Shown in pieces: positions 5,873 to 46,946 of a DNA stretch of 64,000 bases. The DNA is from Patescibacteria group bacterium. GTDB taxonomy: Bacteria; Patescibacteriota; Patescibacteriia; 2-02-FULL-49-11. Each line of letters starts with the position of its first letter. The stretch's first letter is position 1. A model generated the notes under the pieces. The model did not search any database. It was not told the origin of the DNA and saw nothing but the letters and a program-made list of their open reading frames with translations. A program made the translations under genes and the position numbers. The DNA lies in assembly GCA_041645165.1 (NCBI GenBank), contig JBAZQN010000001.1:117971-181970 (forward strand), written 5' to 3'.

Positions 5873-5899
5873 GAAATATTTTTAATCGGTTTCTAAAAT

Positions 5900-6412: not shown

Positions 6413-6423
6413 AAAATACCTCA

Positions 6424-6617: not shown

Positions 6618-6637
6618 GAAATAAAATACAGGCAATT

Positions 6638-11876: not shown

Positions 11877-11887
11877 ACCTATCACAT

Positions 11888-14583: not shown

Positions 14584-14706
14584 GATATGAGGGGATCTAC
14601 CTGAGTGTAGTAAAGGCGTATTCAGAGCCTCCCTCATCAATCGCCAAACGTTTTTTAAACATTAATATGTATCACAGCACCAAGGTCGTATCTATTCTAG
14701 GATTTA

Positions 14707-14743
14707 TCTAATACCAGCCACGTTTGGCGTTGGATGTTGATAT
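14707..14743 (+). repeat. 37-bp perfect inverted repeat, left copy (gccacgtttggcgttggatgttgatatactgggtatg), ending on the rmlD-like start codon
   Basis: Exact reverse-complement of 46420-46456. An additional imperfect homology 14624-14650 matches 46526-46550 (23/25), and a degenerate direct copy lies at 46619-46651. Confidence 0.9.
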
Positions 14744-15602
14744 ACTGGGTATGAGTATATTATTGCTGGGCGCACAAGGGCAATTAGGCGAAGCCTTGGG
14801 AGACGTGTTGCCAAAAGAAACATTGAAATGGGGAAGGGGCGAATTGGATCTTACACAAATTGATTCGATTGCCCCAAAGATATCTGAAGCACATCCTAAT
14901 GTAGTAATTAATGCGGCAGCAATGACTGATGTGGATGGATGTGAAATAAATAGAGCATTAGCCGTAAAAATAAATGAAGATGCGCCTTGCCTGCTCGCAA
15001 AAGTTTGTAAGAGTTTAAACAGTCTCTTAGTACAGGTGAGCACTGATTATGTCTTTGGATATGATGAAACAAGGAAAAAACCCTACAATGAATCAGATAC
15101 GCCGCATGCAATAAATTATTATGGCATTACTAAGCTTGAAGGAGAGCGAAAGATTATAGAGAGCGGCTGCGAATATTTAATCTTACGAACCTCAGGATTA
15201 TACGGCAAGAAGAGTATGGGCTCGAATTACTCGAATTACGTTGAAAAAGTGCTCACGCGCGCGAGATCACAGGAAGAGATACGCGCAACCACAGATCAAA
15301 TTTATTCCCCTACCTATGCCCAAGAGTTTACACAGGCACTTATATCTCTTATTGAACAGAATCAGCGCGGACTTCTGCATTTGGTAAATGTGGGCGAGGT
15401 CAGTCGTTATGAGTTTACTCAAGCAATTATTGAGCTTGCGGGATTGCCGGTACGGGTGGTGCCAGCTTTGAGGAAAGATTTTTCTCTACTTGCGCAGCGA
15501 CCTTCATATTCAGCGCTTACCAGCGAACGCATTGAACTTTTTTCATTGATGAGCGATTGGAAAACTGCGCTTCAGAATTATATTAAAGAACGCGTCTTAT
15601 GA
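14741..15602 (+). CDS. rmlD: dTDP-4-dehydrorhamnose reductase (RmlD family)
   Basis: MSILLLGAQGQLG Rossmann motif, NAAAMTDVD, STDYVFG, YGITK catalytic YxxxK; the track N-terminus MALDVDILGM (14724) is a translation of the inverted repeat, so the start at 14741 is preferred. Confidence 0.75.
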
Positions 15603-16885
15603 AACTTTTAATTGTCGCATATAAATTTGGCACAGAACAGGAGATAGGCGAGCATCTTGGCACGTATCATTATTTTATCGAAAAAATGCGTCGTGTGGCG
15701 CTGAAAGGCCATGAGGTGCATGTCGTATGCCCGTGGCTCACCATGACACGAAGGGGAAGCGTGAAAGTTGATGGCATTATACTACATCGCACTTGGCCTC
15801 CGATGCTCAATAAAGCGTGGGCGTGGCCGTTGAATCGTCTCATGCGGCGATGGTATATGCACCGAACGCAGCGTAAGGTACTGCATCTTGTGAAGAAATT
15901 GAAGTGCGATCTCGTCTATGTTTGGCAGGCGCGCGAAACTGGCTACGCGCTTTGCCAAATAAAGGAACAATTGGGTATTCCCCTCATATTCCGCCAGATC
16001 ACCGCGTGGCGGTGGCATTTTGAACGCACGATTGCGGATATTTTTAAATCTCATCGGTGGTATAAGGTTTTACAAAAGGCCAAGCTCCAACATTTGATTG
16101 ATCCAGTTATACGTTATCTCCTTGACCTTGGAATTCAGGTCCATTACGCGCGCACGATATATCAGAAGGCTGATAAGATTGTATTTTTAAGCAATGCCGC
16201 AGTGGATGAAGCGGTGTCATTGGGATTAGACCGCGCGAAAGCGGATACCATTGGCGTGGCAATAGAAGAGGAGGCCTTCAAGCCGTTAGGGATTGAGAAA
16301 AAGGCATTGCGTGAAAAATTAGGATTGAACGGTCATAATATTATTAGTTTCATCGGTCGGTTGAATTTTGCGGAAAAAGGGATTGGGTGGCTGCTCTCTG
16401 CCCTTCCTGCGGTAGTGCAGTCAGTGCCTGGCGCTACACTTGTTATTATTGGTGGAGGAGGGGAGATGGAACGCATCAAGCGTGTGTGCAGAGAACTTCA
16501 CATCGAACCATATGTCCAATTGGTAGGCAAAAAGCCATTGAATGAACTTGTTGCCTATTTAAACGCGTCTGATGTATTTGTGGTACCATCCCTTTGGATG
16601 GAAGCGTTTGGTCAAGTGACGATAGAGGCCATGTCCTGTGGCGTGCCCGTGGTGACGAGCGATGCAGGAGCAAGCCCGGAAATAAACAAGGATAACGTGA
16701 GCGGTATGGTGGTGCCCGTAAATGATGCGAATGCGCTTTCCAATGCCATCATCACAATACTGAAAGATGAAACCTTAAAGCAGCGTATGGGCCAAGCGGC
16801 TCGCGCGCGCGTCATTGAACTCTATACGTATGAGGTAATGGTGAATAGATTTCTAAATATCATGCAATCTTTATTACCGCGTTAA
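15599..16885 (+). CDS. Glycosyltransferase GT4 with extended N-terminal domain
   Basis: EAFGQVTIEAMSCGVPVVTSD. Confidence 0.7.
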   Translation: MKLLIVAYKFGTEQEIGEHLGTYHYFIEKMRRVALKGHEVHVVCPWLTMTRRGSVKVDGIILHRTWPPMLNKAWAWPLNRLMRRWYMHRTQRKVLHLVKKLKCDLVYVWQARETGYALCQIKEQLGIPLIFRQITAWRWHFERTIADIFKSHRWYKVLQKAKLQHLIDPVIRYLLDLGIQVHYARTIYQKADKIVFLSNAAVDEAVSLGLDRAKADTIGVAIEEEAFKPLGIEKKALREKLGLNGHNIISFIGRLNFAEKGIGWLLSALPAVVQSVPGATLVIIGGGGEMERIKRVCRELHIEPYVQLVGKKPLNELVAYLNASDVFVVPSLWMEAFGQVTIEAMSCGVPVVTSDAGASPEINKDNVSGMVVPVNDANALSNAIITILKDETLKQRMGQAARARVIELYTYEVMVNRFLNIMQSLLPR

Positions 16886-16895
16886 TAGCATCAAA

Positions 16896-17948
16896 ATGAA
16901 AATCCTTGTTACTGGCATCACAGGTTTTGTAGGCGGACATTTCACGGAATATATCGCTTCTGCTCATCCTGACGTCGAACTCCACGGAACTTCGCTTACT
17001 CCCGCATTGCCGCAGTATTTGGAGCCTATTAAAGGGCACTTAACACTTCATGAGTGCAATATAGACAATAAAGGACGCATACAAGAGCTTATAGATCACA
17101 TCCGGCCTGATGCTCTTATACATCTCGCTGCGCAAAGCTATGTAAGCACCTCGTGGGAAAATCCGGAAACGACCCTGCATACCAACATCATTGGCCAGAG
17201 CAATCTGCTGGAAGCGGTAAGAGCCGTACAGGGTGGTTCCTACAACCCCATTATTCTCATCGCGTGTTCCTCTGAAGAATATGGGCAGCAAGGCCCGCAA
17301 GAAGGCTTTACCCCGTTACCAATAACGGTACAGCATAAAGTAACGGGAACAGAACGCTATGACGGAAATAAGTACCTGGTAACGGGGTTTACTGAAGAGA
17401 GCTCCCTGCAGCCGCTCTCGCCCTATGCGCTTTCAAAAATCGCGCAGGATTACATGGGCTATCAGTATTGGAGGGCGTATGGTATGAAGGTCATCCGCCT
17501 ACGCGCGTTCAACCATACCGGCCCGCGTCGCGATCCCGTATTCGGCGTATCGGGTTTTTGCAAGAAGGTTGCGGAGATTGAAAAAGGATTGCGCCCCCCG
17601 CAGCTGGAAGTGAGGGATTTGACTGCAGTGCGCGATTTTACTGACGTGCGGGATGTGGTGCAGGCTTATTGGTTGGCGGTAGAGAAGTGCAAACCGGGGG
17701 AAGTTTACAATGTATGTTCGGGCAGGGGGTATCGTTTTCAAGATATTATTTCCGCGATCACTAAGCTCTCTCGAGTGCAGCCGATCGCGTTGGTTCCTGA
17801 TCCCAAAGGGTTGAGGCCCACTGATGGAGGCATTATTATAGGCAATAACAGGAAATTCTGCACCACAACCGGCTGGCAGCCGAAATTTAATTTCCTTAAA
17901 CATACGATTCCTGATATATTGGAATACTGGAGAAATAATATTTCTTAG
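16896..17948 (+). CDS. NAD-dependent epimerase/dehydratase (GDP-4-keto-6-deoxymannose reductase / Rmd-like)
   Basis: TGITGFVGGHF Rossmann motif; YALSKIAQDY catalytic YxxxK; RAFNHTGPRR typical of Gmd/Rmd family. Confidence 0.65.
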   Translation: MKILVTGITGFVGGHFTEYIASAHPDVELHGTSLTPALPQYLEPIKGHLTLHECNIDNKGRIQELIDHIRPDALIHLAAQSYVSTSWENPETTLHTNIIGQSNLLEAVRAVQGGSYNPIILIACSSEEYGQQGPQEGFTPLPITVQHKVTGTERYDGNKYLVTGFTEESSLQPLSPYALSKIAQDYMGYQYWRAYGMKVIRLRAFNHTGPRRDPVFGVSGFCKKVAEIEKGLRPPQLEVRDLTAVRDFTDVRDVVQAYWLAVEKCKPGEVYNVCSGRGYRFQDIISAITKLSRVQPIALVPDPKGLRPTDGGIIIGNNRKFCTTTGWQPKFNFLKHTIPDILEYWRNNIS

Positions 17949-17966
17949 ATTTTAATAGCACAAACT

Positions 17967-18548
17967 ATGTCACGAATTGAATTTTTATTTTTGAACCTCA
18001 AGCCCGGCGTCATTCTCGATATAGGAAATTTAGGGAGAGCCAAACTTTTCCACGAGCGGCTGATTGCGGAGTTCCCTCAATCACAAATTCATGGGATTGA
18101 TATTGAAGACCAAGCCATATACGGACTGCATTTCCAGAATCAAATTGTGGGCAACGCAGAGGCAATGCCGTATCAGGATAATTATTTTGATGCCGTCTAC
18201 ATGGGTGAAGTTATAGAGCACAGCTGGGTTCCGAAGCAGATTATTGATGAATGTTACCGGGTGCTTAAAATAGGCGGCGTGCTTATCCTTGATTGTCCGA
18301 ACGTATATGCACTGTCGCGTATTCTGCGTTTTTTAGCAACCGGCCGCGACATCATTCTTGGCAGTCCGAATCATCGCATTTTTTATTCGCGTGCGATGAT
18401 GGAGAATTTGCTAGAGAAGAGCGGTTTTCAGAAAACTGAAGTCACTGCGGACAGCAAGTGCACGATAAAAAGCAGAAGTTTCAAATTGCCGCGTTTCGGC
18501 CCGTTTGCGTATCTAGGCGAACATCTGCTCGCCGCGGCGTGGAAATGA
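17967..18548 (+). CDS. Class I SAM-dependent methyltransferase (small)
   Basis: VILDIGNLG, YFDAVYMGEVIEH (Methyltransf_11-like). Confidence 0.55.
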   Translation: MSRIEFLFLNLKPGVILDIGNLGRAKLFHERLIAEFPQSQIHGIDIEDQAIYGLHFQNQIVGNAEAMPYQDNYFDAVYMGEVIEHSWVPKQIIDECYRVLKIGGVLILDCPNVYALSRILRFLATGRDIILGSPNHRIFYSRAMMENLLEKSGFQKTEVTADSKCTIKSRSFKLPRFGPFAYLGEHLLAAAWK

Positions 18549-18653
18549 ATTTCACTTTTTTAAAGATCGTATACTGTGGAGCGCAGGCGTCGTTGCCTGT
18601 TTTTTTTATTAGAAAAATGATAGAATAAGCGTAAATTTAACTGTCTGATCATT

Positions 18654-19703
18654 ATGAGAAACATTAATTTATTTGCGTTTCCTTTGCATCTGAAAATACC
18701 CAATGGCTATTGGGATCAGCTCTATGGCGGCATTGCGCGGGAGCGGCCGGATATCGTGCTGAAGCATAATGATTTTATGGGCCTTGCGCGCTCGTGGCGC
18801 AGCACAAACGTGGTGCATTTACACTGGCCTTCAATACTTTACGCAAGCAAGTGGCGTGTTATCTCCCTTATAAAATTTGTCATCCGTATAGGCATTATCA
18901 CATTGTCGAAACTGCGCGGCGACAGGATTATTTGGACTGTCCATAATATGCGCGATCATGAAGGGAAGAATGCGGCCTTTGACGCGCTTGCCCAACGGTT
19001 CCTGGCGCGGTACGCGGACGCGGTTATTGTCCATTCGCCCGCTGGCGTTGAGTTTCTTGCTGAAAATTACCGGAGGGCGAATGACGTCTATGTTATTCCG
19101 CATCCCAACTACGTCGGCTTCCATGGTCCGCGACTCTCGGCGCCGGATCCCTCGCTTCGCGCCGTTCTTGATTTAAAAGAGAATGACAAAGTTTTTTTAA
19201 GTTTTGGTTCAATTCGGCCTTATAAAAACCTTGAGCAGCTCATTTCACTTTTTAACAACTTGCCTGATCGCTATATTTTAGTGATTGCGGGAAAATCGTT
19301 TTATCAATCATATCTTGCCGCATTGCGTGCGTTGGTAAAAAAAAATAACGTATGCGTTGTGCCTCATTCTATTCCGAACGAAGACATACCACGCTATTTT
19401 TCATTGGTTCACGCCTCGCTTTTTGCCTTCAAAGAAGTGCTCACTTCAGGATCGATGCTGCTTTCGCTTTCCTACGGCGTTCCCGCGATTGTGCCAAAGC
19501 GCGGCGATATGCCCTCGGTGATTAAAGATGGAGTCAATGGATTTTTATATAAGAATGGACAGGAACTTGACGCACGCATAAGATACATGGGAAGTTTGGA
19601 TAACGCGGCGCTCTTAAGACTGCAGGAAAGCACTTTACGGGAAACGGTATCGATTTCATTGGATGCCATTGTCCATGCTACACTGGGAGTATATGGCATT
19701 TAA
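18654..19703 (+). CDS. Glycosyltransferase (GT1/GT4-like C-terminal domain)
   Basis: FLSFGSIRPYKNLEQLI and the downstream GT-B C-domain pattern. Confidence 0.5.
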   Translation: MRNINLFAFPLHLKIPNGYWDQLYGGIARERPDIVLKHNDFMGLARSWRSTNVVHLHWPSILYASKWRVISLIKFVIRIGIITLSKLRGDRIIWTVHNMRDHEGKNAAFDALAQRFLARYADAVIVHSPAGVEFLAENYRRANDVYVIPHPNYVGFHGPRLSAPDPSLRAVLDLKENDKVFLSFGSIRPYKNLEQLISLFNNLPDRYILVIAGKSFYQSYLAALRALVKKNNVCVVPHSIPNEDIPRYFSLVHASLFAFKEVLTSGSMLLSLSYGVPAIVPKRGDMPSVIKDGVNGFLYKNGQELDARIRYMGSLDNAALLRLQESTLRETVSISLDAIVHATLGVYGI

Positions 19704-19724
19704 TATATATTGAATTGCTAACCT

Positions 19725-19870
19725 AATTCCGATAATGTCATTCCTGACCGAGATCAGGAATCCAGACAAAAAATAAACAAAAATCATTTTTCTTTTGGTT
19801 TTCTGGATTCCCGCCGGAGTTTACCCCGTACCGTGATACGGGGCGGGAATGACATTAGAGTCGGAATTTG
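19725..19870. repeat. MITE-like structured intergenic element with about 20-bp terminal inverted repeats and three internal hairpins
   Basis: TIRs aattccgataatgtcattcc / ggaatgacattagagtcggaatt; internal stems attcctga/tcaggaat, ggaatccag/ctggattcc, ccccgta/tacgggg. Confidence 0.5.
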
Positions 19871-19891
19871 AAGAGCAATTGAATATAATAT

Positions 19892-20590
19892 ATGGACCCT
19901 AAGGCCTTCTATGACTCCGTGTATGCAAGCAAAGGGGACCGCGCCATGCGCCCGCGATGGGTATATGAACGGTGGTTCAGGTTATTAGGCAATACACAAA
20001 CTTACCAATCATTGCTTGATGTCGGGTGCGGCACGGGGTTGTTTTTGCAAGTGGCTACGGAGCAGGGCTTGGCTGCCACAGGCCTTGATTTATCGGATGC
20101 CGCGGTCGCGCTCTCAAAGAAAAATTCGCCCCACTCCACAGTGGTGCAGGGGAGCGGGGAACGTCTGCCCTTTCTCGATAAGCAGTTTGACTATGTGTGT
20201 TGTCTGGGGAGTTTGGAGCACTACAGCGATCCTCTAAAGGGGCTTCGTGAATTGGTGAGGGTTGCGAAAGACGATGCGAAATTTCTTATTATACTGCCGA
20301 ATGACAATTACCTTTTTTGGAAGTTAAAAAAAATAAAAAAAGGAACTGCGCAGAGGGAATTTGAAGTATTAAAAAATTTTGATGGATGGAAGCGTTTTTT
20401 GGATGAAGGGGGATTGGAAATACTGCACATATATCAGGATAAATATCCTTCAGAGGAGCTGCGCATATTTCAATTTAAAAATCCCTACAAGATACTGCGG
20501 CGAGTGCTCTATAAAATGATTTGGCTTATGATGCCGTTGAAGTACACGTATCAATTTGTTTTTATTTTACAGAAAAATTTTTATACGTGA
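19892..20590 (+). CDS. Class I SAM-dependent methyltransferase
   Basis: Motif I LLDVGCGTGLF; motif II/III spacing. Confidence 0.65.
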   Translation: MDPKAFYDSVYASKGDRAMRPRWVYERWFRLLGNTQTYQSLLDVGCGTGLFLQVATEQGLAATGLDLSDAAVALSKKNSPHSTVVQGSGERLPFLDKQFDYVCCLGSLEHYSDPLKGLRELVRVAKDDAKFLIILPNDNYLFWKLKKIKKGTAQREFEVLKNFDGWKRFLDEGGLEILHIYQDKYPSEELRIFQFKNPYKILRRVLYKMIWLMMPLKYTYQFVFILQKNFYT

Positions 20591-21545
20591 AACGTATATA
20601 AATATGAAAAAATATATTAGAAAATTATTAAGTTTTATTATCTTATTATTCAATAAAACACATTGGATCGTTAGCCTCATCTTATGGCCATTGGCAAAAA
20701 GAGGATTGGGTCAAAATTACCTCGAAGTCGTACAAATCGGTGATGGCATTAAATTGAAGGTGTATTCTGATATGTATGATATGGTGAATAAAGTATTGAT
20801 GTTTTATTCTGATTTTGTGACTTATGCGTGGGAGCCTGTAACCACCAGATTATTTCAAAAATTAATTAAAGGGAAGAAGTGTATTGTAATAGCCGGCGCC
20901 CATTTGGGATATTATCCCCTCATTGCAGCTCGTTTTAATATCAATGCAATAATTTATGCGTTTGAGCCTGTTACATATATATATGATCGCTTTATACAAA
21001 ATATAGAACTAAATCATTTTCTAAATATTCGAGCGGAACCACAAGCGCTATCCAATCAAAATAGCGAAACTGACATCATCAAAGCGGACGGCGGTTCCAC
21101 AATCATCCTGTCCCAATATCCATCCTTAAATAAAGGAAAAGAAAAGTGCCATTGCGTTACTATTGATGATTATTTTAACGATAAAGATGAGAAACCAGAT
21201 TTTATGCTGTTGGATGTTGAAGGTAGTGAATACCGAGCATTAGCGGGAGCAGAACAAGTGCTTAAAGTATTTCACCCAGATATTATATTCGAAATATATT
21301 TAAAAGATACTGCACAAGCCGATACTATTGTTCTACCTGCTCAATTGTTAGACAGGCATGGCTATGAATTATATGTAATTCATGAACAAAACGAACCTAT
21401 GCTTATAGGAGAGAATTTTCCCATTGTACTATCACGGCTGCGAGTTGACGATGTCCGACATCTCAAGGGTGCGTACGTTAATATTTTAGCCACTCGTGAT
21501 CGTAAGAAGATAAAACTGATGTTTCCAAGTATTTCTGGCATATAA
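20556..21545 (+). CDS. FkbM-family methyltransferase (start probably at Met 20604)
   Basis: AGAHLGYY ... FEP ... LLDVEGSE pattern of Methyltransf_21/FkbM. Confidence 0.5.
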   Translation: MFLFYRKIFIRETYINMKKYIRKLLSFIILLFNKTHWIVSLILWPLAKRGLGQNYLEVVQIGDGIKLKVYSDMYDMVNKVLMFYSDFVTYAWEPVTTRLFQKLIKGKKCIVIAGAHLGYYPLIAARFNINAIIYAFEPVTYIYDRFIQNIELNHFLNIRAEPQALSNQNSETDIIKADGGSTIILSQYPSLNKGKEKCHCVTIDDYFNDKDEKPDFMLLDVEGSEYRALAGAEQVLKVFHPDIIFEIYLKDTAQADTIVLPAQLLDRHGYELYVIHEQNEPMLIGENFPIVLSRLRVDDVRHLKGAYVNILATRDRKKIKLMFPSISGI

Positions 21546-21636
21546 TACGAGCGGGAATATACAATGTTAACCATACTATTCGTATGAGAAGAGTCATTAC
21601 ACGGGATTATTCTGTAGGTATGGCAAAAGTATTTAT

Positions 21637-22887
21637 GTGAATAAAAATTGTTTATTCCCTATAGTATATAGAGAATTTATTTCCATGAAGTTAATTTATT
21701 TTGCCAATATACGCCTGCCTACGGAAAAAGCGTATGGCATACAGATAATGAAAATGTGTGATGCTTTTTCACACGCAGGCGCGGAAGTGACGCTGGTGAT
21801 CCCCACGCGCGCGAATCCCGGATTTAACGGTGTCAATCCTTTTGACTATTATGGGGTGAAACGATCTTTTGCGTTACAACGCATTAAAACGTTTGATCCT
21901 TGGTGGCTGATACGATTGCCGCAAGGCATCTATATTAAGGTTCAAGGATTTCTTTTTATATTCAAATTATATTTATGGTTCTTTATTCACAATATATATT
22001 CAAAATACGATGTCGCGTATACCCGTGATGAGTATCTCTTGCCGCTCCTGCATAAATTTTTTCCGCGTGTGGTGTGGGAAGCGCACAATTTACCAAGTCA
22101 TCCGCAGCGCTATATCAAAGCATGGCGAAAATGCCGGTACATTGTCGCAATTACCAAGGGGCTTAAGGACGCATTAGTGAAACAAGGCGTACACCCTGAT
22201 CACATAATGGTGGCGCCGGATGGAGTAGACCTTGAAAAGTTCACCCGGTCATCCGACCGGGTGCCCAGTCGAATGACTGGGCAAGTTCAACCCTTCGACT
22301 CGGCTCAGGGTGACAGGGATGAGTTACGGAGGCAATTAGGTTTACCGACAGACAAAAAGATTATCCTTTATAGCGGCCATTTATATGAACGGAAAGGCGC
22401 GCAAATGCTCGCTGATGCGATCCGTTTGCTCGATGATCGCTTTCTTGCGGTAATTGTGGGCGGCACACCTCATGATATCGAGAGATTTGCGATACGCAAT
22501 ATGGATACATTCCGTATAAAAATTGTCGGTTATCAGCCCCATGCGCTCATCCCGCGTTATCTCAATGCGGCAGACGCGCTGGTATTGCCGAATTCTGCAA
22601 AAAACGATGATGCAAAATTATTCACTTCACCCATGAAATTATTCGAATACATGACCGCGCACGCCCCTCTTATTGCGTCCCGCGTGCCTGCGCTGCAGGA
22701 AATATTAAATGACCATAATGCAGTTTTTTTTAATCCGGATGATCCGCGCGATCTCGCCAATGTTATTCAAAAGGTAATTGATAACCCAGATCTCTATAAT
22801 GCATATTGGCAGCAGGCGAATAAAGACGTCATGCAGTATACATGGCTTAAGCGGGCACAGCGTATCTTCACTACAATCATCAAATAA
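21637..22887 (+). CDS. Glycosyltransferase GT4 carrying an in-frame palindromic insertion (start probably Met 21685)
   Basis: GT4 C-domain (NSAKNDDAKLFTSPMKLFEYMTAHAPLIAS); a 25-aa low-complexity insert FTRSSDRVPSRMTGQVQPFDSAQGDRDEL is encoded by the double-hairpin element at 22240-22286. Confidence 0.65.
   Translation: MNKNCLFPIVYREFISMKLIYFANIRLPTEKAYGIQIMKMCDAFSHAGAEVTLVIPTRANPGFNGVNPFDYYGVKRSFALQRIKTFDPWWLIRLPQGIYIKVQGFLFIFKLYLWFFIHNIYSKYDVAYTRDEYLLPLLHKFFPRVVWEAHNLPSHPQRYIKAWRKCRYIVAITKGLKDALVKQGVHPDHIMVAPDGVDLEKFTRSSDRVPSRMTGQVQPFDSAQGDRDELRRQLGLPTDKKIILYSGHLYERKGAQMLADAIRLLDDRFLAVIVGGTPHDIERFAIRNMDTFRIKIVGYQPHALIPRYLNAADALVLPNSAKNDDAKLFTSPMKLFEYMTAHAPLIASRVPALQEILNDHNAVFFNPDDPRDLANVIQKVIDNPDLYNAYWQQANKDVMQYTWLKRAQRIFTTIIK
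22240..22286 (+). repeat. Palindromic in-frame insertion element, copy A (cacccggtcatccgaccgggtg + gcccagtcgaatgactgggc)
   Basis: Two adjacent perfect hairpins inside the coding sequence; homologous to the copy in gltX (63259-63306) with compensatory stem changes. Confidence 0.7.
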
Positions 22888-22892
22888 ATAAT

Positions 22893-23492
22893 ATGTTCAA
22901 TAAATTTCGAGATTTACTAGCCAAAAAACCATGGATTTTCAATGTGCTAAGAAATATTATTGAATTTAATTTTACCAAAGAAAAGGAGCTTATCCGAAAG
23001 GCCTTTGGCGATAGTGCGGGGAAGACGATACTCGATATTGGCTGCGGCACTGGCACGTTTGCGCCACTTTTTGTGGATGATATCTATTATGGCATAGATC
23101 TATCGCCAGATTATATTCAGCATGCAAAAAAAAATAAAAAGGGTACTTTCAAAATTATGAATGCAACCCAATTGGAATTTCCTGATGAGAAGTTCGATTA
23201 CGCGCTCATCATGGCCGTTTTACACCATTGTGACTCTGAAACGGTTCAGCAAATTTTACGAGAAACACGTCGTGTATTAAAAACTCAAGGGAAAGCGCTA
23301 GTGATTGAGGTCAGCCATAGCACTGAAATGGACAACTTTATTTTTCGTTTCTTGAGGAAATTTGATAAAGGAGATTATATCCGCTCTCCACAAGAATACG
23401 CGCAACTCATTTTAAATAATTTTAAAATTGACAAGGAAATGACTTTTCGCAGCGGATTATATGTCTATCACAGCTTCGAGGTGTATAAATAG
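22893..23492 (+). CDS. Class I SAM-dependent methyltransferase
   Basis: ILDIGCGTGTF motif I; DYALIMAVLHH. Confidence 0.65.
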   Translation: MFNKFRDLLAKKPWIFNVLRNIIEFNFTKEKELIRKAFGDSAGKTILDIGCGTGTFAPLFVDDIYYGIDLSPDYIQHAKKNKKGTFKIMNATQLEFPDEKFDYALIMAVLHHCDSETVQQILRETRRVLKTQGKALVIEVSHSTEMDNFIFRFLRKFDKGDYIRSPQEYAQLILNNFKIDKEMTFRSGLYVYHSFEVYK

Positions 23493-23497
23493 GGAAT

Positions 23498-24235: not shown

Positions 24236-24237
24236 GA

Positions 24238-26061: not shown

Positions 26062-26083
26062 CTATATAACCTAAATACCTATT

Positions 26084-31201: not shown

Positions 31202-31210
31202 ATTGATAAT

Positions 31211-33523: not shown

Positions 33524-33642
33524 ACGTTATGGGGAATAATCTAATAAAAAAGTTTACACGCAGATTAACGCAGATAACCGACCGCCATACGTTCGTACTA
33601 TTATCTTGAGGTACAGGGCGTATACGGTCGGACGCGGATTTA

Positions 33643-36552: not shown

Positions 36553-36555
36553 AGG

Positions 36556-38007: not shown

Positions 38008-38074
38008 CGTTATCAGGTTAAATTGATTATTATAGAAGCCATTTATTAAAGCGTAAATTTTAAGTTTTGTCAAG

Positions 38075-39289: not shown

Positions 39290-39299
39290 TATTGATACT

Positions 39300-40103
39300 A
39301 TGAACTTTCATTCTCGTTTTGTCTTATATAATTTAGAAAAAAAGCTGTCTGATCAGTTACGTACTATCTCATCTGAGGGTCGTGAACAAATGTATGCAAA
39401 AGTATATCGCGGTTTTTTTGACATGGCGAAACAAATTGAAGGATGGGAGGGAGATGCAGAGATAAAGGAAAATGCAGCTAAAGAATTACAAAAATTAAAT
39501 CTATTGAGACACCTTGTGCATCCAAACACAACATTCATTGAATTTGGTGCGGGTGATTGTGCACTCGCATTGGCGGTAGCTCGATTTGCAGGATATGTTT
39601 ATGCCACTGAGACGACCAATATGCTACCCAATAATGTAGCTCTTCCTTCAAATTTTGAGCTCATACTTGTGCCATTACAAGAAAATTTATTAAAACGGGA
39701 GAGTATGGATCTCGCATACAGCAATCAATTCATTGAGCACCTTCATCCTGATGATGCAAAGGAGCATATAAAAAAGGTATATTTATTGTTGCGTATGGGC
39801 GGGAGATATCTTTGCATGACCCCCAATAAACTGACAGGGCCTCATGATATTTCTCGATACTTTACATCGACGCCAACCGGATTTCATTTAAAAGAATATT
39901 CATTTAAAGAGCTTATAAAATTATTTAGAGATAACGGATTCAGTGAACTAATTACCTACATAGGAGGAAAGGGATATTATATGCGTTGTAATATCAATGT
40001 AGTACTTTTTATTGAGCGATTGTTTAGTAAGTTGCCGTTAAAGATACGTCAGAATTTTCCATTAGGGGGAGTTCTTAATGTAAGGATTATGGGAGTTAAG
40101 TAA
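39300..40103 (+). CDS. Class I SAM-dependent methyltransferase
   Basis: FIEFGAGDCALALAVA motif I; start taken at internal Met (MNFHSRF) after the upstream GT stop. Confidence 0.55.
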   Translation: MNFHSRFVLYNLEKKLSDQLRTISSEGREQMYAKVYRGFFDMAKQIEGWEGDAEIKENAAKELQKLNLLRHLVHPNTTFIEFGAGDCALALAVARFAGYVYATETTNMLPNNVALPSNFELILVPLQENLLKRESMDLAYSNQFIEHLHPDDAKEHIKKVYLLLRMGGRYLCMTPNKLTGPHDISRYFTSTPTGFHLKEYSFKELIKLFRDNGFSELITYIGGKGYYMRCNINVVLFIERLFSKLPLKIRQNFPLGGVLNVRIMGVK

Positions 40104-40119
40104 TAAATAGTGTTTTAAT

Positions 40120-41226
40120 ATGCGGATCGGCATTGATGCTTCGCAATTAGTAAAGTGGCAAAAAACCGGAATTGAGTGGTATAGCTATCATGTAGTCAAA
40201 GAAATGCGGCATGTGGTTCCGCCGGAACATCGCGTCCGTCTGTATGCGCCTTGTGCCCTTCCTCAGAAATTTTTACCGCTTCCTTCCTATTGGGAGTTAA
40301 AGATATTGCGCTGGCCTCTTCCTTGGGGCTGGACTCAACTTCGCCTTGCATGGGAGCTTATACGCAATGCGCCCGATATTTATTTTACCCCGGGTTACAT
40401 TATTCCTCTACTTTTGAAGGAGAAAGCCGCGGTGAGCATCCATGACGTGGCATTCAGGAATTACCCGTCTGCGTACCGCCATCCTCGCCTAAATGAACTT
40501 ATCCACCGTTGGAACGCAAAACGTGCGCAGATAATTATAGTGCCTTCAGACGCGACCAAGAAAGCGGTGGTCAACGCATATCATATTGATTCGGAGAAGA
40601 TTCATGTTATACCTCACGGATATGATCATACGATTTATCATCAATACGGGAAGGCGGAAATACAAAAAACGTTTAATCGTTACCGCCTTACCGATCCCTA
40701 TGTAATTACCGTGGGAAGAGTGGAAGAAAAAAAGAATATAATAAGTGTTCTAGCCGCAGTTGAAGAGGCAAGGAAGCGGTCGGAATTAAAAAATCTCATA
40801 TTGGTATTAGTGGGCAGTCCTGGATTTGGATATGAGGAGATACAGCGTTGGATCAAAGATCACCATGCGCAAGACTGGGTGCGCGAATTAGGCTGGCTGC
40901 CATCGGAAGATGTCGCGGTTTTGATGAATGGCGCCTTGAGCCTCCTCGCATTAAGTTGCGAGGAAGGGTTCGGGTTGACTGTGCTTGAAGCGCTCGCGTG
41001 CGGCACGACTGTACTTGCGTCCGATATCCCGGCTCATCGGGAAGTGGGAGCAGAGTTCGTCACTTATGTGGATCGTATGAATATATCGGCTATTTCACAA
41101 GCGATTACCAAAATTAATAATACGCCGGAAAAAAAGAGACAGAAAATGGAGTATGCTTCTCAGTTTACCTGGCGGCATGCTGCGCAAAGCATATATGAAA
41201 AATTAGTGTTGATATATGAAATATAG
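40120..41226 (+). CDS. Glycosyltransferase GT4
   Basis: EGFGLTVLEALACGTTVLASD. Confidence 0.7.
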   Translation: MRIGIDASQLVKWQKTGIEWYSYHVVKEMRHVVPPEHRVRLYAPCALPQKFLPLPSYWELKILRWPLPWGWTQLRLAWELIRNAPDIYFTPGYIIPLLLKEKAAVSIHDVAFRNYPSAYRHPRLNELIHRWNAKRAQIIIVPSDATKKAVVNAYHIDSEKIHVIPHGYDHTIYHQYGKAEIQKTFNRYRLTDPYVITVGRVEEKKNIISVLAAVEEARKRSELKNLILVLVGSPGFGYEEIQRWIKDHHAQDWVRELGWLPSEDVAVLMNGALSLLALSCEEGFGLTVLEALACGTTVLASDIPAHREVGAEFVTYVDRMNISAISQAITKINNTPEKKRQKMEYASQFTWRHAAQSIYEKLVLIYEI

Positions 41227-43204
41227 AGTTATTATCACATTTTTGTCCATCATTCTATTTTCAATTGTTTATATTTCTGCCGCACATGCGAGCAGTTTCC
41301 CTCGTTTGGCAAATTATTATCTAACGGGAGGAGGTATTACGGAACAGGAAGCGCAAGAACTAACGAAATGGGATGTGGTCATTATGGGAATGGAAGTACC
41401 CGAAATTTCGCCGGCGGCGTTTGCGCTTATAAAAAAAAATAATCCCGACGTCAAATTGTTGGTGTATGTGGACAGTATAATGCGTGGCACGGCCCCGGTG
41501 CAGTGGCGAAGCTCTTTTCATGAGTATCATTACAATAATGCAAAAAGTGAGTGGCTTTTGCAATCTCCACAGGGCGAGAGCATGACATTCTGGCCAGGGA
41601 CAGAGATAATGAATCCCACCGATTATGCGCCTTTGGCGCAGGGGAAACGTTGGAATGATTTTTTGCCAGCATTTGCTGCTCAGGTTTATCAGAAACAAGG
41701 AGTTTGGGACGGCATTTTTTTTGACGACGCGATGTCGGACATTTCCTGGCTGAATAACGGGAATATCGACATTACTAATGACGGCGTCAAAGACGCGCCG
41801 GAATTTATTGATAAGGCGTGGCGAACAGGTATGCGAAGCATTTATCAAAAAACGCGCGCCAATTTGGGCGATAATATAATTATTATCACTAATTCAAGTT
41901 ATGAATATAGCGAACAGTTGAACGGCCGGATGTTTGAGACAGTGCTAACGCATGGGTGGAAGTGGGATGAGCAAATCAAAGCCATCGAGGATGCGGGAAG
42001 TTCAGGCGGTTACCTGCCGCGCTATATCGTGGTGAACGCCAATACTGACAACACAGGCAATCGGGAAGATTGGCGCAAATTTCGTTTCGCCTTCACATCG
42101 ACATTACTGACTGACGCTTATTTCAGCTACGACTACGGCGACAAATGGCACGAACAAATCTGGTGGTATGATGAATATAATGTAAATTTAGGTAATGCGA
42201 GGAGCAACGCATATGCAGTAACTAACAAAGAAAGGACATTGTTAGGCGTATGGCGTCGGGATTTTGAAAAGGGGATTGCTTTGGTGAATATTACAGGAGT
42301 TGCACAAACGGTAATCGTAGGCAGCAATTTTAAAAAGATAAACGGCACGCAGGATAAGAGCGTAAATAACGGACAGCGCGTCTCGCAAATTACGATGGGT
42401 GCATACGATGGTATTGTTTTAGAGAGAGTGAATCAAGAATCTGTGCCACAGAATATGACTGTATCGCAAGGATTCGTTGCAGGCAGTAACGCGGAGTTAT
42501 GGGATATGACAACAGGTAAATCGGTAGGTATTATGGTTTTGAATTTACAATCAATTCCTAAGGGTACGTTTGGTTTAATAAACGATTTAGACAGTGACGG
42601 TATCGATGAGACCATTATTTGGAAAAATGGAGCATTAACCCTCTACCGGAATGGACAAAAAATGTGGCTCATGTACCCATATGACAAACGTTGGCGAGGC
42701 AGTGTAAGTCTTGCATCAGGAGATGTGGACGGTGACGGTATGCGTGAAATTGTGCTTGCCGCGGGCTTTGGCGGCGGCCCTCATGTAAGGATTGTTGATG
42801 TAATGGGAAAGTTAAGAGGGCCGGGATTCTTTGCGGGAAACAAAAATAGCAGGACCGGCACCTTTGTAGATGTGAATGATATCAATGGAGACGGGGTAGA
42901 TGAAATTATTGCTGGCACGGGACGCGGTGAAGAGCCATGGGTGAGGATATTTGACGCAAAGGGGACATTGCTGAATTCCTTTCTTGCGTATGAGCGCAAT
43001 AATCAGCAGGGAGTATCTGTGGTTGCAAGTGATGTTAATAATGATAAGGTAAGCGAGATATTTACGATTAATGCGAATCATGTTAAAGTGTATGCCTCCA
43101 CAGGTATATTGTTGGATCAATTTACCCTTTCAAACCAAGGGAAAAATAATAAAAGGGTAGTTATTGTTCAGGATGCTCTACATAAGAGACTTGCTACGTA
43201 TTGA
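41216..43204 (+). CDS. Secreted protein: N-terminal TIM-barrel glycoside-hydrolase-like domain (GH114/GHL-type) plus C-terminal FG-GAP/VCBS repeats
   Basis: Signal peptide MKYRVIITFLSIILFSIVYISAAHA; repeated DxDxDGxxE FG-GAP motifs (DLDSDGIDE, DVDGDGMRE, DINGDGVDE). Confidence 0.5.
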   Translation: MKYRVIITFLSIILFSIVYISAAHASSFPRLANYYLTGGGITEQEAQELTKWDVVIMGMEVPEISPAAFALIKKNNPDVKLLVYVDSIMRGTAPVQWRSSFHEYHYNNAKSEWLLQSPQGESMTFWPGTEIMNPTDYAPLAQGKRWNDFLPAFAAQVYQKQGVWDGIFFDDAMSDISWLNNGNIDITNDGVKDAPEFIDKAWRTGMRSIYQKTRANLGDNIIIITNSSYEYSEQLNGRMFETVLTHGWKWDEQIKAIEDAGSSGGYLPRYIVVNANTDNTGNREDWRKFRFAFTSTLLTDAYFSYDYGDKWHEQIWWYDEYNVNLGNARSNAYAVTNKERTLLGVWRRDFEKGIALVNITGVAQTVIVGSNFKKINGTQDKSVNNGQRVSQITMGAYDGIVLERVNQESVPQNMTVSQGFVAGSNAELWDMTTGKSVGIMVLNLQSIPKGTFGLINDLDSDGIDETIIWKNGALTLYRNGQKMWLMYPYDKRWRGSVSLASGDVDGDGMREIVLAAGFGGGPHVRIVDVMGKLRGPGFFAGNKNSRTGTFVDVNDINGDGVDEIIAGTGRGEEPWVRIFDAKGTLLNSFLAYERNNQQGVSVVASDVNNDKVSEIFTINANHVKVYASTGILLDQFTLSNQGKNNKRVVIVQDALHKRLATY

Positions 43205-43225
43205 AATAATAAGGACAATTTATCT

Positions 43226-43257
43226 AAAAAAAGGCGCAGAATATGCGCTTTTTTTTG
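43226..43257. terminator. Rho-independent terminator-like hairpin flanked by A- and T-runs (bidirectional)
   Basis: aaaaaaGGCGCAgaatatGCGCttttttt directly after the FG-GAP gene stop. Confidence 0.5.
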
Positions 43258-43312
43258 ACAAAATAAAAAAAACAATGTAAGGTAAATTTCTTTTGTTTTA
43301 AGTATTTTATAT

Positions 43313-44509
43313 ATGCGGATAGCAATGATAGGGCAAAAAGGCATCCCTTGCACCGGAGGAGGGGTGGAGCGGCATGTGGAGGAATTATCCCGTCTGTTGG
43401 TGCGTGCAGGCCATGAGGTCCTCGTGTATACGCGTCCGCATTATACTGACAAGAAACGTGCGCGATATCATGGCGTAACACTAAAATCACTCCCTTCTCT
43501 CCCCACAAAGCATCTTGACGCTTTGAGCCACTCGTTAATAGGCACTTTCCACGCGATGCGCCAAGGTGTGGATATCATACATTATCATGGCATAGGGCCT
43601 TCGTTGTGCGCACCTATCCCTAGGGTATTTACGCCTCATATCAAAGTTATAGGTACGTTCCATTCACAAGATTGGAGGCACCAGAAGTGGGGACTCTTCG
43701 CTCGATTCATACTGCGTCTCGGGGCGTGGACTATGACGCATGTGCCACACATTACAATTGCAGTATCGCAAGAAATCAGTGATTTAATTTTTCAGCGTAC
43801 GGGAAGACGAGTGCCGTATATTCCCACCGGCGTATTGCTCCATAAAAAGAAGCCTCCTTTAAGGCTTTTAGAATCATTTCATCTGCAGAGAGGAAGATAT
43901 CTTTTGGTCGTCTCGCGTTTTGTCCGCCATAAATCCATTACTGATGCGGTAGAGGCTTTTATCCGTTTGAAGTCGCGTTTTCCAAAAGATGCGCGCATCT
44001 CACGCTTAAAACTCGCCTTGGTTGGCGGAGGCGCATTCACTGATGCATATGTGAATGAGATTAAGGCATGCGCGGGTAAGAGAGACGACATCGTGCTTAC
44101 AGGGTACCAGAAAGGCTATACCCTTCATGCACTGTATGCCCATGCTTTTGCATTTCTCCAGCCTTCAATATCTGAAGGAAAATCTATCGCGCTGCTTGAG
44201 GCTATGTCATGGGGATTGCCTATCATTGCCGCAGATATTCCTGAAACGCGGGAAGTGCTTATCCCCGTTCAGCGAAAGGTTTCGGGGGTACTTTATGCGC
44301 CGCGCAATATCGCAAACCTCACCCATGCAATGCATGCGCTTATCAATAAACCAAGATACGCCCGACAATTAGGCGCACAGGCGCGCAAAGAGGTTGCCGC
44401 CACTTATAATTGGGATACCATTATTTATGATATTATCGCGCTATATGAATGTGCGCTGCAGCAAAGCGATGAATATCATGCGCTCGATTACCGGTTGAGA
44501 GAAGCCTAA
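43313..44509 (+). CDS. Glycosyltransferase GT4 (PimA-like)
   Basis: N-terminal GGVERHVEELSRLL and C-terminal EGKSIALLEAMSWGLPIIAAD. Confidence 0.7.
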   Translation: MRIAMIGQKGIPCTGGGVERHVEELSRLLVRAGHEVLVYTRPHYTDKKRARYHGVTLKSLPSLPTKHLDALSHSLIGTFHAMRQGVDIIHYHGIGPSLCAPIPRVFTPHIKVIGTFHSQDWRHQKWGLFARFILRLGAWTMTHVPHITIAVSQEISDLIFQRTGRRVPYIPTGVLLHKKKPPLRLLESFHLQRGRYLLVVSRFVRHKSITDAVEAFIRLKSRFPKDARISRLKLALVGGGAFTDAYVNEIKACAGKRDDIVLTGYQKGYTLHALYAHAFAFLQPSISEGKSIALLEAMSWGLPIIAADIPETREVLIPVQRKVSGVLYAPRNIANLTHAMHALINKPRYARQLGAQARKEVAATYNWDTIIYDIIALYECALQQSDEYHALDYRLREA

Positions 44510-44577
44510 TTGATATCGCATTCAAACGCACTCACTACGCACTCAAACGCAGTTGAGGTGCAGTATTTATTGATTTA

Positions 44578-46422
44578 TTAATCCGTGATACTGGGATCGC
44601 CTGGTCCCACTGAATAGATGGCGTCGCCGTTCAATACATAGATTCGCCGCGCTGCTTCATCCGGGTAAAGTCCCCGCAATTCAGTAAACAGCGGGCTCGT
44701 ATATTGGGCAACTAATGAGCCGTCTTTTTTTAATACGACAACTACGCGGCGTTGGGGTTGGTCGAGGAGATAGAGATAGGGAGAATCTTCCTTAGTCGCG
44801 ATTGCTTTCACGTTTCCCAAAGGAGGCTGGAGAGGCCTTAAGGCAAATGGCACCCGTTTGCCTTTTTCAAGCCGTATTATGCTGTGGTCGGTGAATGTCA
44901 CGTACATAGAGCCGTCAATGGCAAAAGTAGTCGCTTGCGATAAGTCTATAGAATCATCTTCTGACCAAGGCGACCATAAATTATACCCCTGATCTGTGCG
45001 TTCAAAGCGGTAAATGGAGCGTGTGCGCGCATCAAGCAAATAGATGTGGTCAAGGTATGTCGCATACGCAATTGGCACCATTGACGCGCGAGGCAGTATA
45101 AGAGGGTACAATTGGAAGGTGCGGTGTTCGGAATCAAAATTTAACACGCCGAGCGGGTTTTCAGTGAGCACCATCACAGTGCCCGGGGTTGAAGCGATGA
45201 TATCTACGGGCTTGCCCGCACCATCAGGAAGTTCTGTCATCACGACAATGCGCCTTTCTTTCCCGTCAAATTCATAAATGGCGCCTTCCGCGCGGTTCAC
45301 CGTATAAAGTTTTCCCTGCTTGAGCGCGAGCCCCATGAGGTCAAACGTATGCGTTTCGCGGAATGATTTTTCCATGGAGACCACTGGTGTGGGATTTGCA
45401 ATAATAGAAAGCTTATTGATCAATGCAGCGCGCTGTGCAAGCCTTGTTCTTAAGTTTTGAATAGTGGATGCTTGAGTGTCTGAAAGATACTGGGGCGCCG
45501 CATTGAGGAGTGCGAGTGTGGCGTCAATGAGCTCAAGCGCATCTTCTTCCTTTTTATCCTTCAGCAGCGACTCTATCTGCGATTCGCGCCGGACGGTTTC
45601 TGCAATTATGCGTTCCACATTTTTTGACCCCACGGAGACAAATATGATACGCAGTGAGACAAGCATTAAGAGCGCGATGACTGCTATAGCGATGCGTTTC
45701 CGGTGGGAGCTTTGCCGTAATAATGCGATACCTCCCAATATGCTTTTTTTAATCGTGGTTAAAATCGCGACCCAGTTTTTTCTTGTTTTGGGCAATGGAA
45801 GAGATGAGATTTTGTTGCGCAGGTGCAAGGCTCTGTCCTTAATGCTTTTTTTTTGGATAAGTCTGATAATAAATGCAGTACCCAGTGTGTCAATAATTTT
45901 ATTAATTTCTTTTTTATTCCCTTCTTTAAGCTGCTGGGCAAACCGCGTAAGATCGGACTTTCCAGATTCTTTTAATGTGATGAGAATCGCGCCATGTTGG
46001 TGCGCGCCCGCCACAAATTCAGTAAATAATTTTTTTCGCCCTACCGAATATTCTGATTGGCATACTTCAATAATGTTTCCTTGTGACAAAAGATACGCGT
46101 AGCATTCTCCGCCCGAAGTGATAGCAAAGGAGTCTTTATTGTAGGCGAGTGCGCATACATTTTCTGTATATGATTTCGTGTCCTTGCTCAATTCGTTTAC
46201 CCTGCTACCTGCATGCTCAAGAGCGCTCTCTAGCGATCCGCGGTTCGCAAAAAAATGTATTGAGAGATGTTTAAAAACTTCATCTCCGTATGACGAATGG
46301 CTTAAGGCTACGAGAAATGAAGCTGATGTCTCTCCCGGCCGCAGCCCTTCACGTTGTGACATTAAAATTCCGCCATTATCGGCGATATTGTGTGATATGC
46401 AAAATTGGATACCTTTGGGCAT
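44578..46422 (-). CDS. Membrane-anchored protein: N-terminal cytoplasmic domain, single TM, large extracytoplasmic beta-rich domain
   Basis: Central TM IAIAVIALLMLVSLRIIFVSV; the start codon at 46420-46422 immediately abuts the 37-bp inverted repeat, so the track N-terminus MALDVDILGM is repeat-derived and probably not translated. Confidence 0.45.
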   Translation of the reverse strand: MPKGIQFCISHNIADNGGILMSQREGLRPGETSASFLVALSHSSYGDEVFKHLSIHFFANRGSLESALEHAGSRVNELSKDTKSYTENVCALAYNKDSFAITSGGECYAYLLSQGNIIEVCQSEYSVGRKKLFTEFVAGAHQHGAILITLKESGKSDLTRFAQQLKEGNKKEINKIIDTLGTAFIIRLIQKKSIKDRALHLRNKISSLPLPKTRKNWVAILTTIKKSILGGIALLRQSSHRKRIAIAVIALLMLVSLRIIFVSVGSKNVERIIAETVRRESQIESLLKDKKEEDALELIDATLALLNAAPQYLSDTQASTIQNLRTRLAQRAALINKLSIIANPTPVVSMEKSFRETHTFDLMGLALKQGKLYTVNRAEGAIYEFDGKERRIVVMTELPDGAGKPVDIIASTPGTVMVLTENPLGVLNFDSEHRTFQLYPLILPRASMVPIAYATYLDHIYLLDARTRSIYRFERTDQGYNLWSPWSEDDSIDLSQATTFAIDGSMYVTFTDHSIIRLEKGKRVPFALRPLQPPLGNVKAIATKEDSPYLYLLDQPQRRVVVVLKKDGSLVAQYTSPLFTELRGLYPDEAARRIYVLNGDAIYSVGPGDPSITD

Positions 46423-46456
46423 ACCCAGTATATCAACATCCAACGCCAAACGTGGC
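46420..46456 (-). repeat. 37-bp perfect inverted repeat, right copy
   Basis: Exact reverse complement of 14707-14743. Confidence 0.9.
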
Positions 46457-46946
46457 GAGGATAGTAGTATTACGTAGTACCGTTGCGACCCTGGAGTATT
46501 GATTTATCATAATGGACAGAATAAGCGTTTGGCGATCGGTGAGGGAGGCTTTGATAGAATCTTGAAATGCATTTATACCATTATTTCATGTTTTATTCAT
46601 TCTCTGTACTCTCATTTCCGCCTCCCTCTTGGATGTTGTATAACTGGGCATAATTTAGAACGTTCGACTCTATCATAATTATGTTTTTTTTGCAAGAGGG
46701 TGGGGGATGAACATTTTTAGTGTTCATGCCCACTTGCGCTTTTTTCTGCGTATGATAGGATATGAAACTTCCTTAAGGGCGCTTAAAAAAATAACCTTTC
46801 CAATATAATCCTCATTTTATTGCGGCATTAGGCTTATTAACTATAGTACCGCATCAAAGCGGTGAATATGTTATTTTTTTACGGCGCCTAAGATATTTGA
46901 GATATCTCACAGAGTTATCCACAGCTACTCTCTTTAATTTGCTATT

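Follow-up and report, generated by a model that had tools for sequence, protein, structure and literature searches.

Probable miniature inverted-repeat transposable elements at two start codons of a glycan-biosynthesis region in a Patescibacteria genome

The stretch analyzed here, referred to as the window, comprises 64,000 nucleotides of a Patescibacteria group bacterium (assembly GCA_041645165.1; contig JBAZQN010000001.1, forward-strand positions 117,971 to 181,970) and belongs to a source contig of 182,672 bp. It represents a glycan-biosynthesis region with many glycosyltransferase genes of the GT4 and GT2 families and genes for RmlD, epimerases, Wzy, and Wzz, flanked by genes for a subtilase, a DUF11 protein, GreA, and tRNA synthetases. 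At the starts of two of its genes, an rmlD-like gene and a gene for a 614-aa protein, the window contains two related units in opposite orientation, which are probably copies of a new family of miniature inverted-repeat transposable elements (MITEs), designated family 1. Homologues of the 614-aa protein (n = 6) include named ones from Candidatus Uhrbacteria and 'Patescibacteria group' metagenome-assembled genomes. The ends of each unit are termed arm1 and arm2, its inner paired strands B/B' and C/C'; the upstream open reading frame (ORF) listed for the right element is one of those discussed below. The features at the two sites are as follows.

13471-14583, + strand: GT4 glycosyltransferase gene; its last 18 codons come from the inserted element.
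14525-14528, + strand: upstream TATG duplication copy of the left element; the former RmlD start context, which overlapped the glycosyltransferase stop (ATA TGA).
14529-14749, + strand: left copy of family 1, 221 bp; arm1 14529-14548, stem B 14549-14557, B' 14627-14635, and, in the second half, linker 14636-14641, stem C 14642-14650, C' 14721-14729, arm2 14730-14749.
14750-14753, + strand: downstream TATG duplication copy of the left element; ATG 14751-14753 is the RmlD start codon.
14751-15602, + strand: intact gene for an RmlD-like dTDP-4-dehydrorhamnose reductase, now 167 nt past the upstream stop that it formerly overlapped.
44578-46422, - strand: gene for the 614-aa protein, which has no Pfam match and orthologs only in Uhrbacteria-like Patescibacteria.
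46420-46423, - strand: TATG duplication copy of the right element; the 614-aa gene begins with ATG 46422-46420.
46424-46648, - strand: right copy of family 1, 225 bp; arm2 46424-46443, C' 46444-46452, C 46526-46534, B' 46541-46549, B 46620-46628, arm1 46629-46648.
46649-46652, - strand: second TATG copy of the right element; the native 5' leader is retained at this copy, where a 21-codon upstream ORF (MPSYTTSKREAEMRVQRMNKT) begins.
46668-46696, - strand: native promoter-like block of the 614-aa gene (TTGCAA, 17 nt ending in TGA, TAGAGT).

Each unit consists of arm1 (CCCAGTyATACAACATCCAA), stem strand B (GAGGGAGGC), a loop of about 69 nt, B' (GCCTCCCTC), a 6-nt linker, stem strand C (CGCCAAACG), a loop of about 70 nt, C' (CGTTTGGCG), and arm2 (TTGGATGTTGATATACTGGG). 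The arms form 20-nt terminal inverted repeats (CCCAGT...ACTGGG), which are imperfect, with 19 pairs and one offset 1-nt bulge per side, and they are identical in the three family-1 elements found, except for one C/T difference. The sequence CCCAGTNNNNCAACATCCAA matches exactly four times in the window, at 14529 (+), 14730 (-), 46424 (+), and 46629 (-). These four arms pair into two whole units of about 225 bp that are mutual reverse complements and 81% identical overall (14500-14780 against the reverse complement of 46390-46680). Folded as single strands, both copies form a three-way junction, with energies of -75.1 kcal/mol for the left copy (z -5.5) and -72.1 kcal/mol for the right one (z -4.9). 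Internal ORFs of 61 and 21 codons (MPS(H/Y)TTSKREA...) begin at the upstream TATG and cross arm1; they are not conserved. No Rfam family reached its gathering score in the window, and on the elements only chance-level matches (E 1.9 or worse) were obtained. Transposase or recombinase domains were absent by Pfam from the 50 larger window ORFs, a scan that left out a few ORFs and the short ones inside the elements.

The original prediction had singled out a perfect 37-nt inverted repeat (GCCACGTTTGGCGTTGGATGTTGATATACTGGGTATG) fused to the start codons of two genes. The repeat exists, and its right copy lies at 46420-46456 as predicted, whereas the left copy, placed at 14707-14743, is actually located at 14717-14753, an offset of 10 nt. 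The 37-mer is made up of arm2 (20 nt), stem strand C', and the duplicated TATG; its 24-nt core occurs twice in the window and gave 0 matches in 100 shuffles. The predicted second block is present as well (14626-14650 and 46526-46550, 92% identical) and represents the central part of each unit, namely B', the 6-nt linker, and C. A compact third copy was correctly recognized at 46619-46651, but its partner, the fourth arm at 14526-14558, had been missed; in the repeat search of the window, 14518-14560 was complementary at 91% to 46617-46659. Further copies were looked for, and none was detected in the window beyond the four arms, while the metagenome collection yielded one extra locus (L031, described below). 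The assignment of the ATG as a start codon held for both genes. For RmlD, the Pfam domain RmlD_sub_bind aligned from residue 1 and the ortholog in the relative L034 has the same start position; for the 614-aa gene, the start agrees with the N-termini of the orthologs (P0002, alignment A2). The hexamer TATACT was likewise found, 4 nt upstream of the ATG.

In Logan contigs of SRR8449827, which match the window at 100% identity, the assembly breaks within the 37-mer, L015 beginning at 14725 and L016 stopping at 46446. A break at a 37-nt repeat is expected in a short-k-mer assembly graph, assuming a k of about 31 for Logan. The repeat is confirmed by this second assembly, which carries no orientation information. 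Gene-start calls disagree at both genes (44578-46449 and 14724-15602) because of the element: the source annotation (P0001) begins the 614-aa gene at Met21, 20 codons later (594 aa), and the Logan annotation begins RmlD inside arm2.

The right site is uninterrupted in four relatives of 69-83% protein identity (L017, L018, L021, and L022): their sequence is collinear with the window on either side, and all that is missing from it is the element and one TATG (alignment A2). The junction reads ...CGAACGTTCTAAAT TATG [CCCAGTT...ACTGGG TATG] CCCAAAGG... in the reverse complement of the window and ...CGAACGTTCTAAATTTTTCATA TATG TCCAAAAG... in the four relatives. The TTGCAA-N17-TAGAGT block is nearly invariant across the window and these relatives (A2), and we infer that it is the promoter of the 614-aa gene, now split from its start codon by the element. 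At the left site, in silico deletion of 14529-14752 yields AAA ATA TGA / ATG AGT, in which the glycosyltransferase stop and the rmlD start overlap as a standard ATGA. The nearest glycosyltransferase orthologs stop at this predicted pre-insertion stop (...ARILS(R/L)(L/I/V)*), and the window protein carries an 18-residue tail, CPVIQHPRGRQILYTENG (~14530-14583), read from arm1 and B. All listed glycosyltransferase homologues except the window's own cover at most 97% of the query, the closest ones 95-96%. In the relative L034, the same TATG of the left site is occupied by a different element, assigned to family 2. Perfect 4-bp direct repeats flank six of the six elements of both families, the duplicated tetranucleotide being TATG five times and TTTC once. 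Empty or excised alleles of the elements are predicted to read ...AAAAATATGAGTATA... or ...TCTAAATTATGCCCAAAGG....

The third member of family 1, L031, was found in the metagenome collection with a gapped two-arm pattern, and the locus recurs identically in L032 and L033 (three samples altogether). The element is 221 nt long and lies in a contig of 53% GC, 120 nt upstream of a vapBC pair. Both of its 20-nt arms are 100% identical to those of the window, including the asymmetry between arm1 and arm2, whereas its interior is unalignable with the window copies and has a GC content of 53%, equal to that of its host, versus 42% in the window copies. It is flanked by the 4-bp repeat GAAA (TTTC in element orientation). 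Since its ends are identical and its duplication is TTTC, the ATG belongs to the target and not to the element, and the flanking tetranucleotides act like target-site duplications. The duplication made by a staggered cut regenerated a start codon downstream, hence the apparent 'fusion' of the element end with two unrelated genes. An insertion of the IS200/IS605 type, with a fixed target and no duplication, is ruled out by L031, which has identical ends but a different flanking tetranucleotide. An attC-like reading was rejected on the grounds of flanks, duplication, and synteny. Direct repeats of about 140 nt (86% identical), at 1-147 of L031 and 92-232 of L032, bracket the family-1 element together with vapB and vapC in a cassette-like arrangement. 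The ORFs inside the L031 element had no exact match in the protein collection.

The L031 element folds into the same three-way junction, with -96.2 kcal/mol as RNA (z -6.2) and -49.5 kcal/mol as DNA (z -5.7). Stem C (CGCCAAACG/CGTTTGGCG in the window) is replaced in L031 by AGCCAAACA/TGTTTGGCT, with two compensatory double changes, and stem B (GAGGGAGGC/GCCTCCCTC) by GATGGAGTT/GACTCCATC, with two double changes and one wobble; 27 of 27 cells are paired. When the partner strand was shifted, pairing of stems B and C fell to 40-60%. A covariation shuffle control is weak with three sequences (60/500 and 154/500), and the structural claim is based only on the complete (100%) pairing, the four compensatory double changes, and the slide control. 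Judged by these, the three-way-junction layout appears conserved with compensation, short of statistical proof, and RNA, single-stranded DNA, or paired protein sites are all candidates for what is conserved. The terminus common to the window and L031 extends over 27 of 28 nt (the 20-nt arm and most of the adjacent stem). Recent gene conversion, which had been proposed for the perfection of the 37-mer, is unnecessary, as these 27/28 nt are also kept in L031 despite the unalignable interior. The comparison points to functional constraint on the terminus as the explanation of that perfection.

Family 2 was recognized at the same glycosyltransferase/RmlD junction in the syntenic relatives L034, L035, and L036, where the junction holds a 98-nt element with terminal repeats CCCGCCYAARTTTTGC. 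In these relatives, the element (5789-5894 in L034) is flanked by TATG on both sides, and the second ATG is the RmlD start. One copy is also present in the window:

9702-9810, + strand: family-2 window copy, 101 bp at 9706-9806, with repeats CCCGCCCAAATTTTGC / GCAAAATTTAGGCGGG and flanking TATG at 9702-9705 and 9807-9810.

Its second TATG contains the start codon of a GT4 gene at 9808, and in L034 the orthologous GtrA stop and glycosyltransferase start are 3 nt apart. Another family-2 copy of L034 (2791-2891, flanks 2787-2895) again has TATG on either side, with the second ATG serving as the start of a response regulator, and its counterpart in the window, at 11877-11890, is an empty site. Just upstream of that copy, at 2774-2790 of L034, a 13-nt relic of the family-1 arm2 end (TTGATATACTGGG) followed by TATG lies between the histidine kinase stop and the response-regulator start, which suggests nested or successive insertions on one TATG. 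In this lineage, all five independent insertions of both families (5/5) hit a start-codon TATG, with the same element end toward the gene. A TATG start context was found in 34 of 53 window genes.

The two window units are best explained as copies of a new MITE family (family 1, 221-225 bp) that inserted twice, in opposite orientation, on TATG start contexts; the probability of this reading is estimated at roughly 85%. The left copy interrupts what was an ATGA stop/start overlap of the glycosyltransferase gene and rmlD, and the right one separates the start codon of the 614-aa gene from its promoter-like block. The transposase would have been supplied in trans and would have made 4-bp staggered cuts; a DDE/DDD type, as in IS1380/piggyBac, may be taken as a lead only. 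Arm2 and stem strand C' would form a constrained terminal and subterminal sequence, presumably the transposase site, and the three-way-junction layout could be needed for mobility or act at the RNA level. In a read-through transcript, the AUG would be hidden within the 20-bp closing helix, and this genome lacks Shine-Dalgarno-guided initiation; the upstream TATG would keep the native initiation context, and ribosomes on the upstream ORFs could melt the closing helix. Alternatively, the outward extended -10 (TGATATACT) in arm2 might drive the two genes.

Several results weigh against this explanation. No autonomous partner and no transposase with matching repeats were found, as 185,579 species genomes gave chance matches only and two metagenome scans gave one extra locus; all partner scans (genomes, metagenomes, viral contigs, and plasmids) were restrictive in that they required exact arms with a fixed flank or spacing. 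The genome-contig scan with ATRCCCAGTNNNNCAACATCCAA produced 13 single matches, none extending past the pattern and all due to chance. The first metagenome scan, a degenerate search with an arm and the adjacent stem, gave 0 matches in a collection without the source contig; viral contigs gave eight single chance matches, and plasmid BLAST of arm2 gave chance matches of 17-18 nt only. The 64-kb window contains only two copies. They are just 81% identical, with conservation mainly in the arms and stems, an unusual pattern if a burst of MITE activity had been recent. Mobility was not observed, and no polymorphic empty site was seen within one population. In addition, the insertions are more regular than neutral tolerance would predict. 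The window TATGs that can be used without disrupting ORFs comprise 34 at start codons and 61 that are fully intergenic, so that about 36% of tolerated insertions are expected at start codons, and five out of five exceed this model (~0.36^5 = ~0.006), though the sample is small. This excess is suggestive of an extra target preference or of selection for start-codon TATG, and a purely neutral insertion model may be incomplete.

The shared unit had originally been taken for a native promoter common to a co-regulated set of genes with leaderless transcripts. A native promoter or regulon is not supported, given the absence of the motif from the orthologous upstream regions of the four relatives, the 4-bp duplication, which contains the ATG, and the number of genes concerned, only two in the window. 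The reported lack of a Shine-Dalgarno sequence is true but was misread as a sign of leaderless starts: a GGAG-like motif at -15 to -5 was detected in 0 of 44 window genes, and since this lack is general in the genome, it says nothing about leaderless starts. A promoter acquired by insertion is a different matter. The arm2 end (TGATATACT-GGGT-ATG) might function as an outward promoter that yields leaderless or near-leaderless transcripts and co-regulates the two genes as a consequence of insertion, a possibility that we regard as unlikely. In its favor, a good extended -10 (TG-n-TATACT) with a GGG discriminator after it is present in arm2, which L031 conserves at 100% and which faces the gene in both insertions, where both genes are intact though severed from their native upstream signals; moreover, insertion sequences, IS1380 members among them, and MITEs such as the Correia elements have documented outward promoters (PMC9330008). 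However, a -35 element is missing, a sigma-70 consensus scan calls no promoter at arm2, and the conservation of arm2 is accounted for by its role as a transposon end. The Shine-Dalgarno lack is genome-wide, as stated above, and with two copies in the window there is no regulon. The -10 hexamer also ends only 4 nt before the A of the ATG, which is unusually short for a leaderless start; transcription usually starts about 7 nt past the hexamer, a position that here would fall on the G and destroy the AUG. A host cis-regulatory RNA, such as a riboswitch- or thermometer-like 5' leader that is vertically inherited, immobile, and sequesters the start codon, would fit the very stable three-way junction with the AUG in its closing helix and the pairing of stems B and C kept by compensatory changes in L031. 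It is highly improbable, though, given that the unit is missing at the orthologous sites of the relatives and flanked by 4-bp duplications, occurs at unrelated genes (in L031, 120 nt from the nearest start), and has no Rfam match, and that the left copy lies within an operon, where it destroyed the ATGA coupling.

The remaining alternatives concern rearrangement of the DNA between or within the units. Inversion of the 31.7-kb glycan segment by recombination between the repeats, as originally proposed, would be possible in principle but is not supported: both outer junctions are collinear with relatives (L034 and L035 on the left, L017-L022 on the right) and each element has its own matching duplications; collinearity together with matching duplications on the two sides of each element indicates that the assembled orientation is ancestral. 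A switch in which RecA or a site-specific enzyme flips the cluster and swaps the contexts of rmlD and the 614-aa gene is accordingly rated very unlikely. The units do offer 37 perfect and about 225 nt of 81% identical inverted sequence, and recombination within them would preserve both start codons, but 37 nt is near the lower limit of efficient RecA recombination, no recombinase was seen among the Pfam-scanned window ORFs, and the assemblies merely break at the repeat. The relatives collinear at the junctions lack these elements, and the matching duplications indicate that no inversion has become fixed, even though MITEs and insertion sequences are known substrates of homologous rearrangement (PMC9330008). 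It is barely credible that each unit of about 225 bp is itself an inverton, that is, an invertible promoter segment bounded by inverted repeats of 20-23 nt and serving phase variation of glycan genes. The geometry is typical, with inverted repeats of about 20 nt around 181-185 bp beside surface-polysaccharide genes; yet the whole unit, both arms included, is an insertion with its own target duplication, and the arms differ by offset 1-nt bulges (CATA versus ATAT) in all three members, leaving no identical crossover core. The scanned window ORFs include no recombinase for this either, and the same element stands beside vapBC in another organism. That two inverted elements moved the 31.7-kb cluster as one composite transposon can practically be dismissed: inverted copies do bracket a coherent gene cluster, but the outer flanks on the + strand, TATG (14525-14528) and CATA (46649-46652), do not form a direct repeat, the two elements carry separate duplications, and synteny with relatives holds at both ends of the cluster.

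Patescibacteria (Candidate Phyla Radiation), with their small and dense genomes, are generally considered poor in mobile elements, and a quick full-text literature search returned no paper describing MITEs in this group. With the MITE explanation, two families rewire junctions of a surface-glycan cluster, one breaking a coupled stop/start overlap and the other parting a promoter-like block from its gene, while the 4-bp duplication leaves every ORF intact in both cases. Such repeats fragment short-k-mer assemblies and mislead start-codon calling. If the start-codon bias and the three-way junction hold in more genomes, these would be tractable transposons adapted to harmless insertion at gene starts and could also give rise to phase-variable glycan expression among uncultivated bacteria. 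A more far-reaching and speculative extension, to which we give little weight, is that families 1 (a 221-nt three-way junction) and 2 (a hairpin of about 100 nt) of Uhrbacteria-like Patescibacteria, both with CCC...GGG ends and a 4-bp duplication, preferentially integrate at TATG start contexts, which the majority of genes here have, as non-destructive, portable, and possibly reversible expression modules. Insertion at operon junctions would do no damage in that case, the start codon being restored by the duplication. If so, excision might be precise, as in piggyBac, and the perfectly conserved element end would become the new upstream context of the gene; the fold would gate translation from the downstream AUG or be recognized by the transposase, and inverted pairs could flip glycan clusters.

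Other repeats and signals were also noted in the window. A 48-nt double hairpin occurs at 22237-22284 (+) and 63261-63308 (reverse complement) in copies 83% identical, and both of its hairpins show compensatory changes. The copies are placed in frame within two unrelated genes, a GT4 gene and gltX, to which they add KF(T/I)RSSDR(V/M)P(S/D)RM(T/I)GQ, and resemble the in-frame palindromic elements of the Rickettsia type. Single hairpins akin to it (CCrGTCATyCGACyGG) occur as well, for example, at 48747-48762. Positions 1-7000 contain seven small unrelated ORFs (PsbP-like, DUF4190, Ser hydrolase, SET, GNAT, and others), and each ORF is followed, every 0.7-1.0 kb, by a repeat of 40 nt (AACTTCGCTTATCCCGATACGTTATATG...) whose inverted partner (...CATAACACGGGATAAGCGGTTC...) is imperfect. 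The arrangement resembles a series of integron cassettes carrying attC-like sites; no integrase was found in the window. The DnaA-box consensus (TTATCCACA) is present at 46915-46923, 24 nt ahead of the subtilase start, and all aligned relatives have it unchanged. The 1-kb GC-rich stretch at 48690-49740 has no long ORFs, contains a 59-nt hairpin (49454-49512) and a similar one at 49691-49728, and may be an undescribed noncoding RNA, with no Rfam match. The stem of the 59-nt hairpin resembles the family-2 terminal repeat; it has no target duplication and is kept in L017-L019.

Among known systems, transposons of the piggyBac superfamily duplicate 4 bp of their target, in rare cases TATG, have repeat ends of the CCC type, and are related to IS1380 in prokaryotes (PMC10813416). 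Family 1 shares the 4-bp duplication and the 5'-CCC / GGG-3' ends; it differs in its target, which is TTAA in canonical piggyBac, its repeats have no demonstrated similarity to named IS1380 members, and no transposase was found. Invertons such as fimS and the capsular polysaccharide promoters of Bacteroides are similar in having inverted repeats of about 20 nt around a segment of about 180 bp upstream of glycan genes, whereas here an insertion with target duplication is seen, the arms lack an identical core, and all assemblies (window, L015, and L016) show one orientation. The palindromic elements of Rickettsia (RPE) are likewise small palindromic mobile DNA tolerated at or in genes of a reduced genome, and one ORF here has gained 18 codons; however, RPEs are inserted in frame inside ORFs and translated, while family 1 lies at ORF boundaries with the start codon regenerated by the duplication. 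Stable hairpins are formed in read-through RNA by Correia elements and other MITEs, which can also contain an outward promoter or create one (PMC9330008). The Correia elements of Neisseria (CREE/NEMIS) resemble family 1 in their length (about 100-250 bp), non-coding nature, terminal inverted repeats of about 20-26 nt, short target duplication, and location beside genes. Family 1 differs from them in the 4-bp duplication (TA in Correia elements), the three-way junction in place of a single hairpin, the insertion exactly on start codons, the lack of sequence similarity, and the host, a Patescibacteria genome without Shine-Dalgarno sites.

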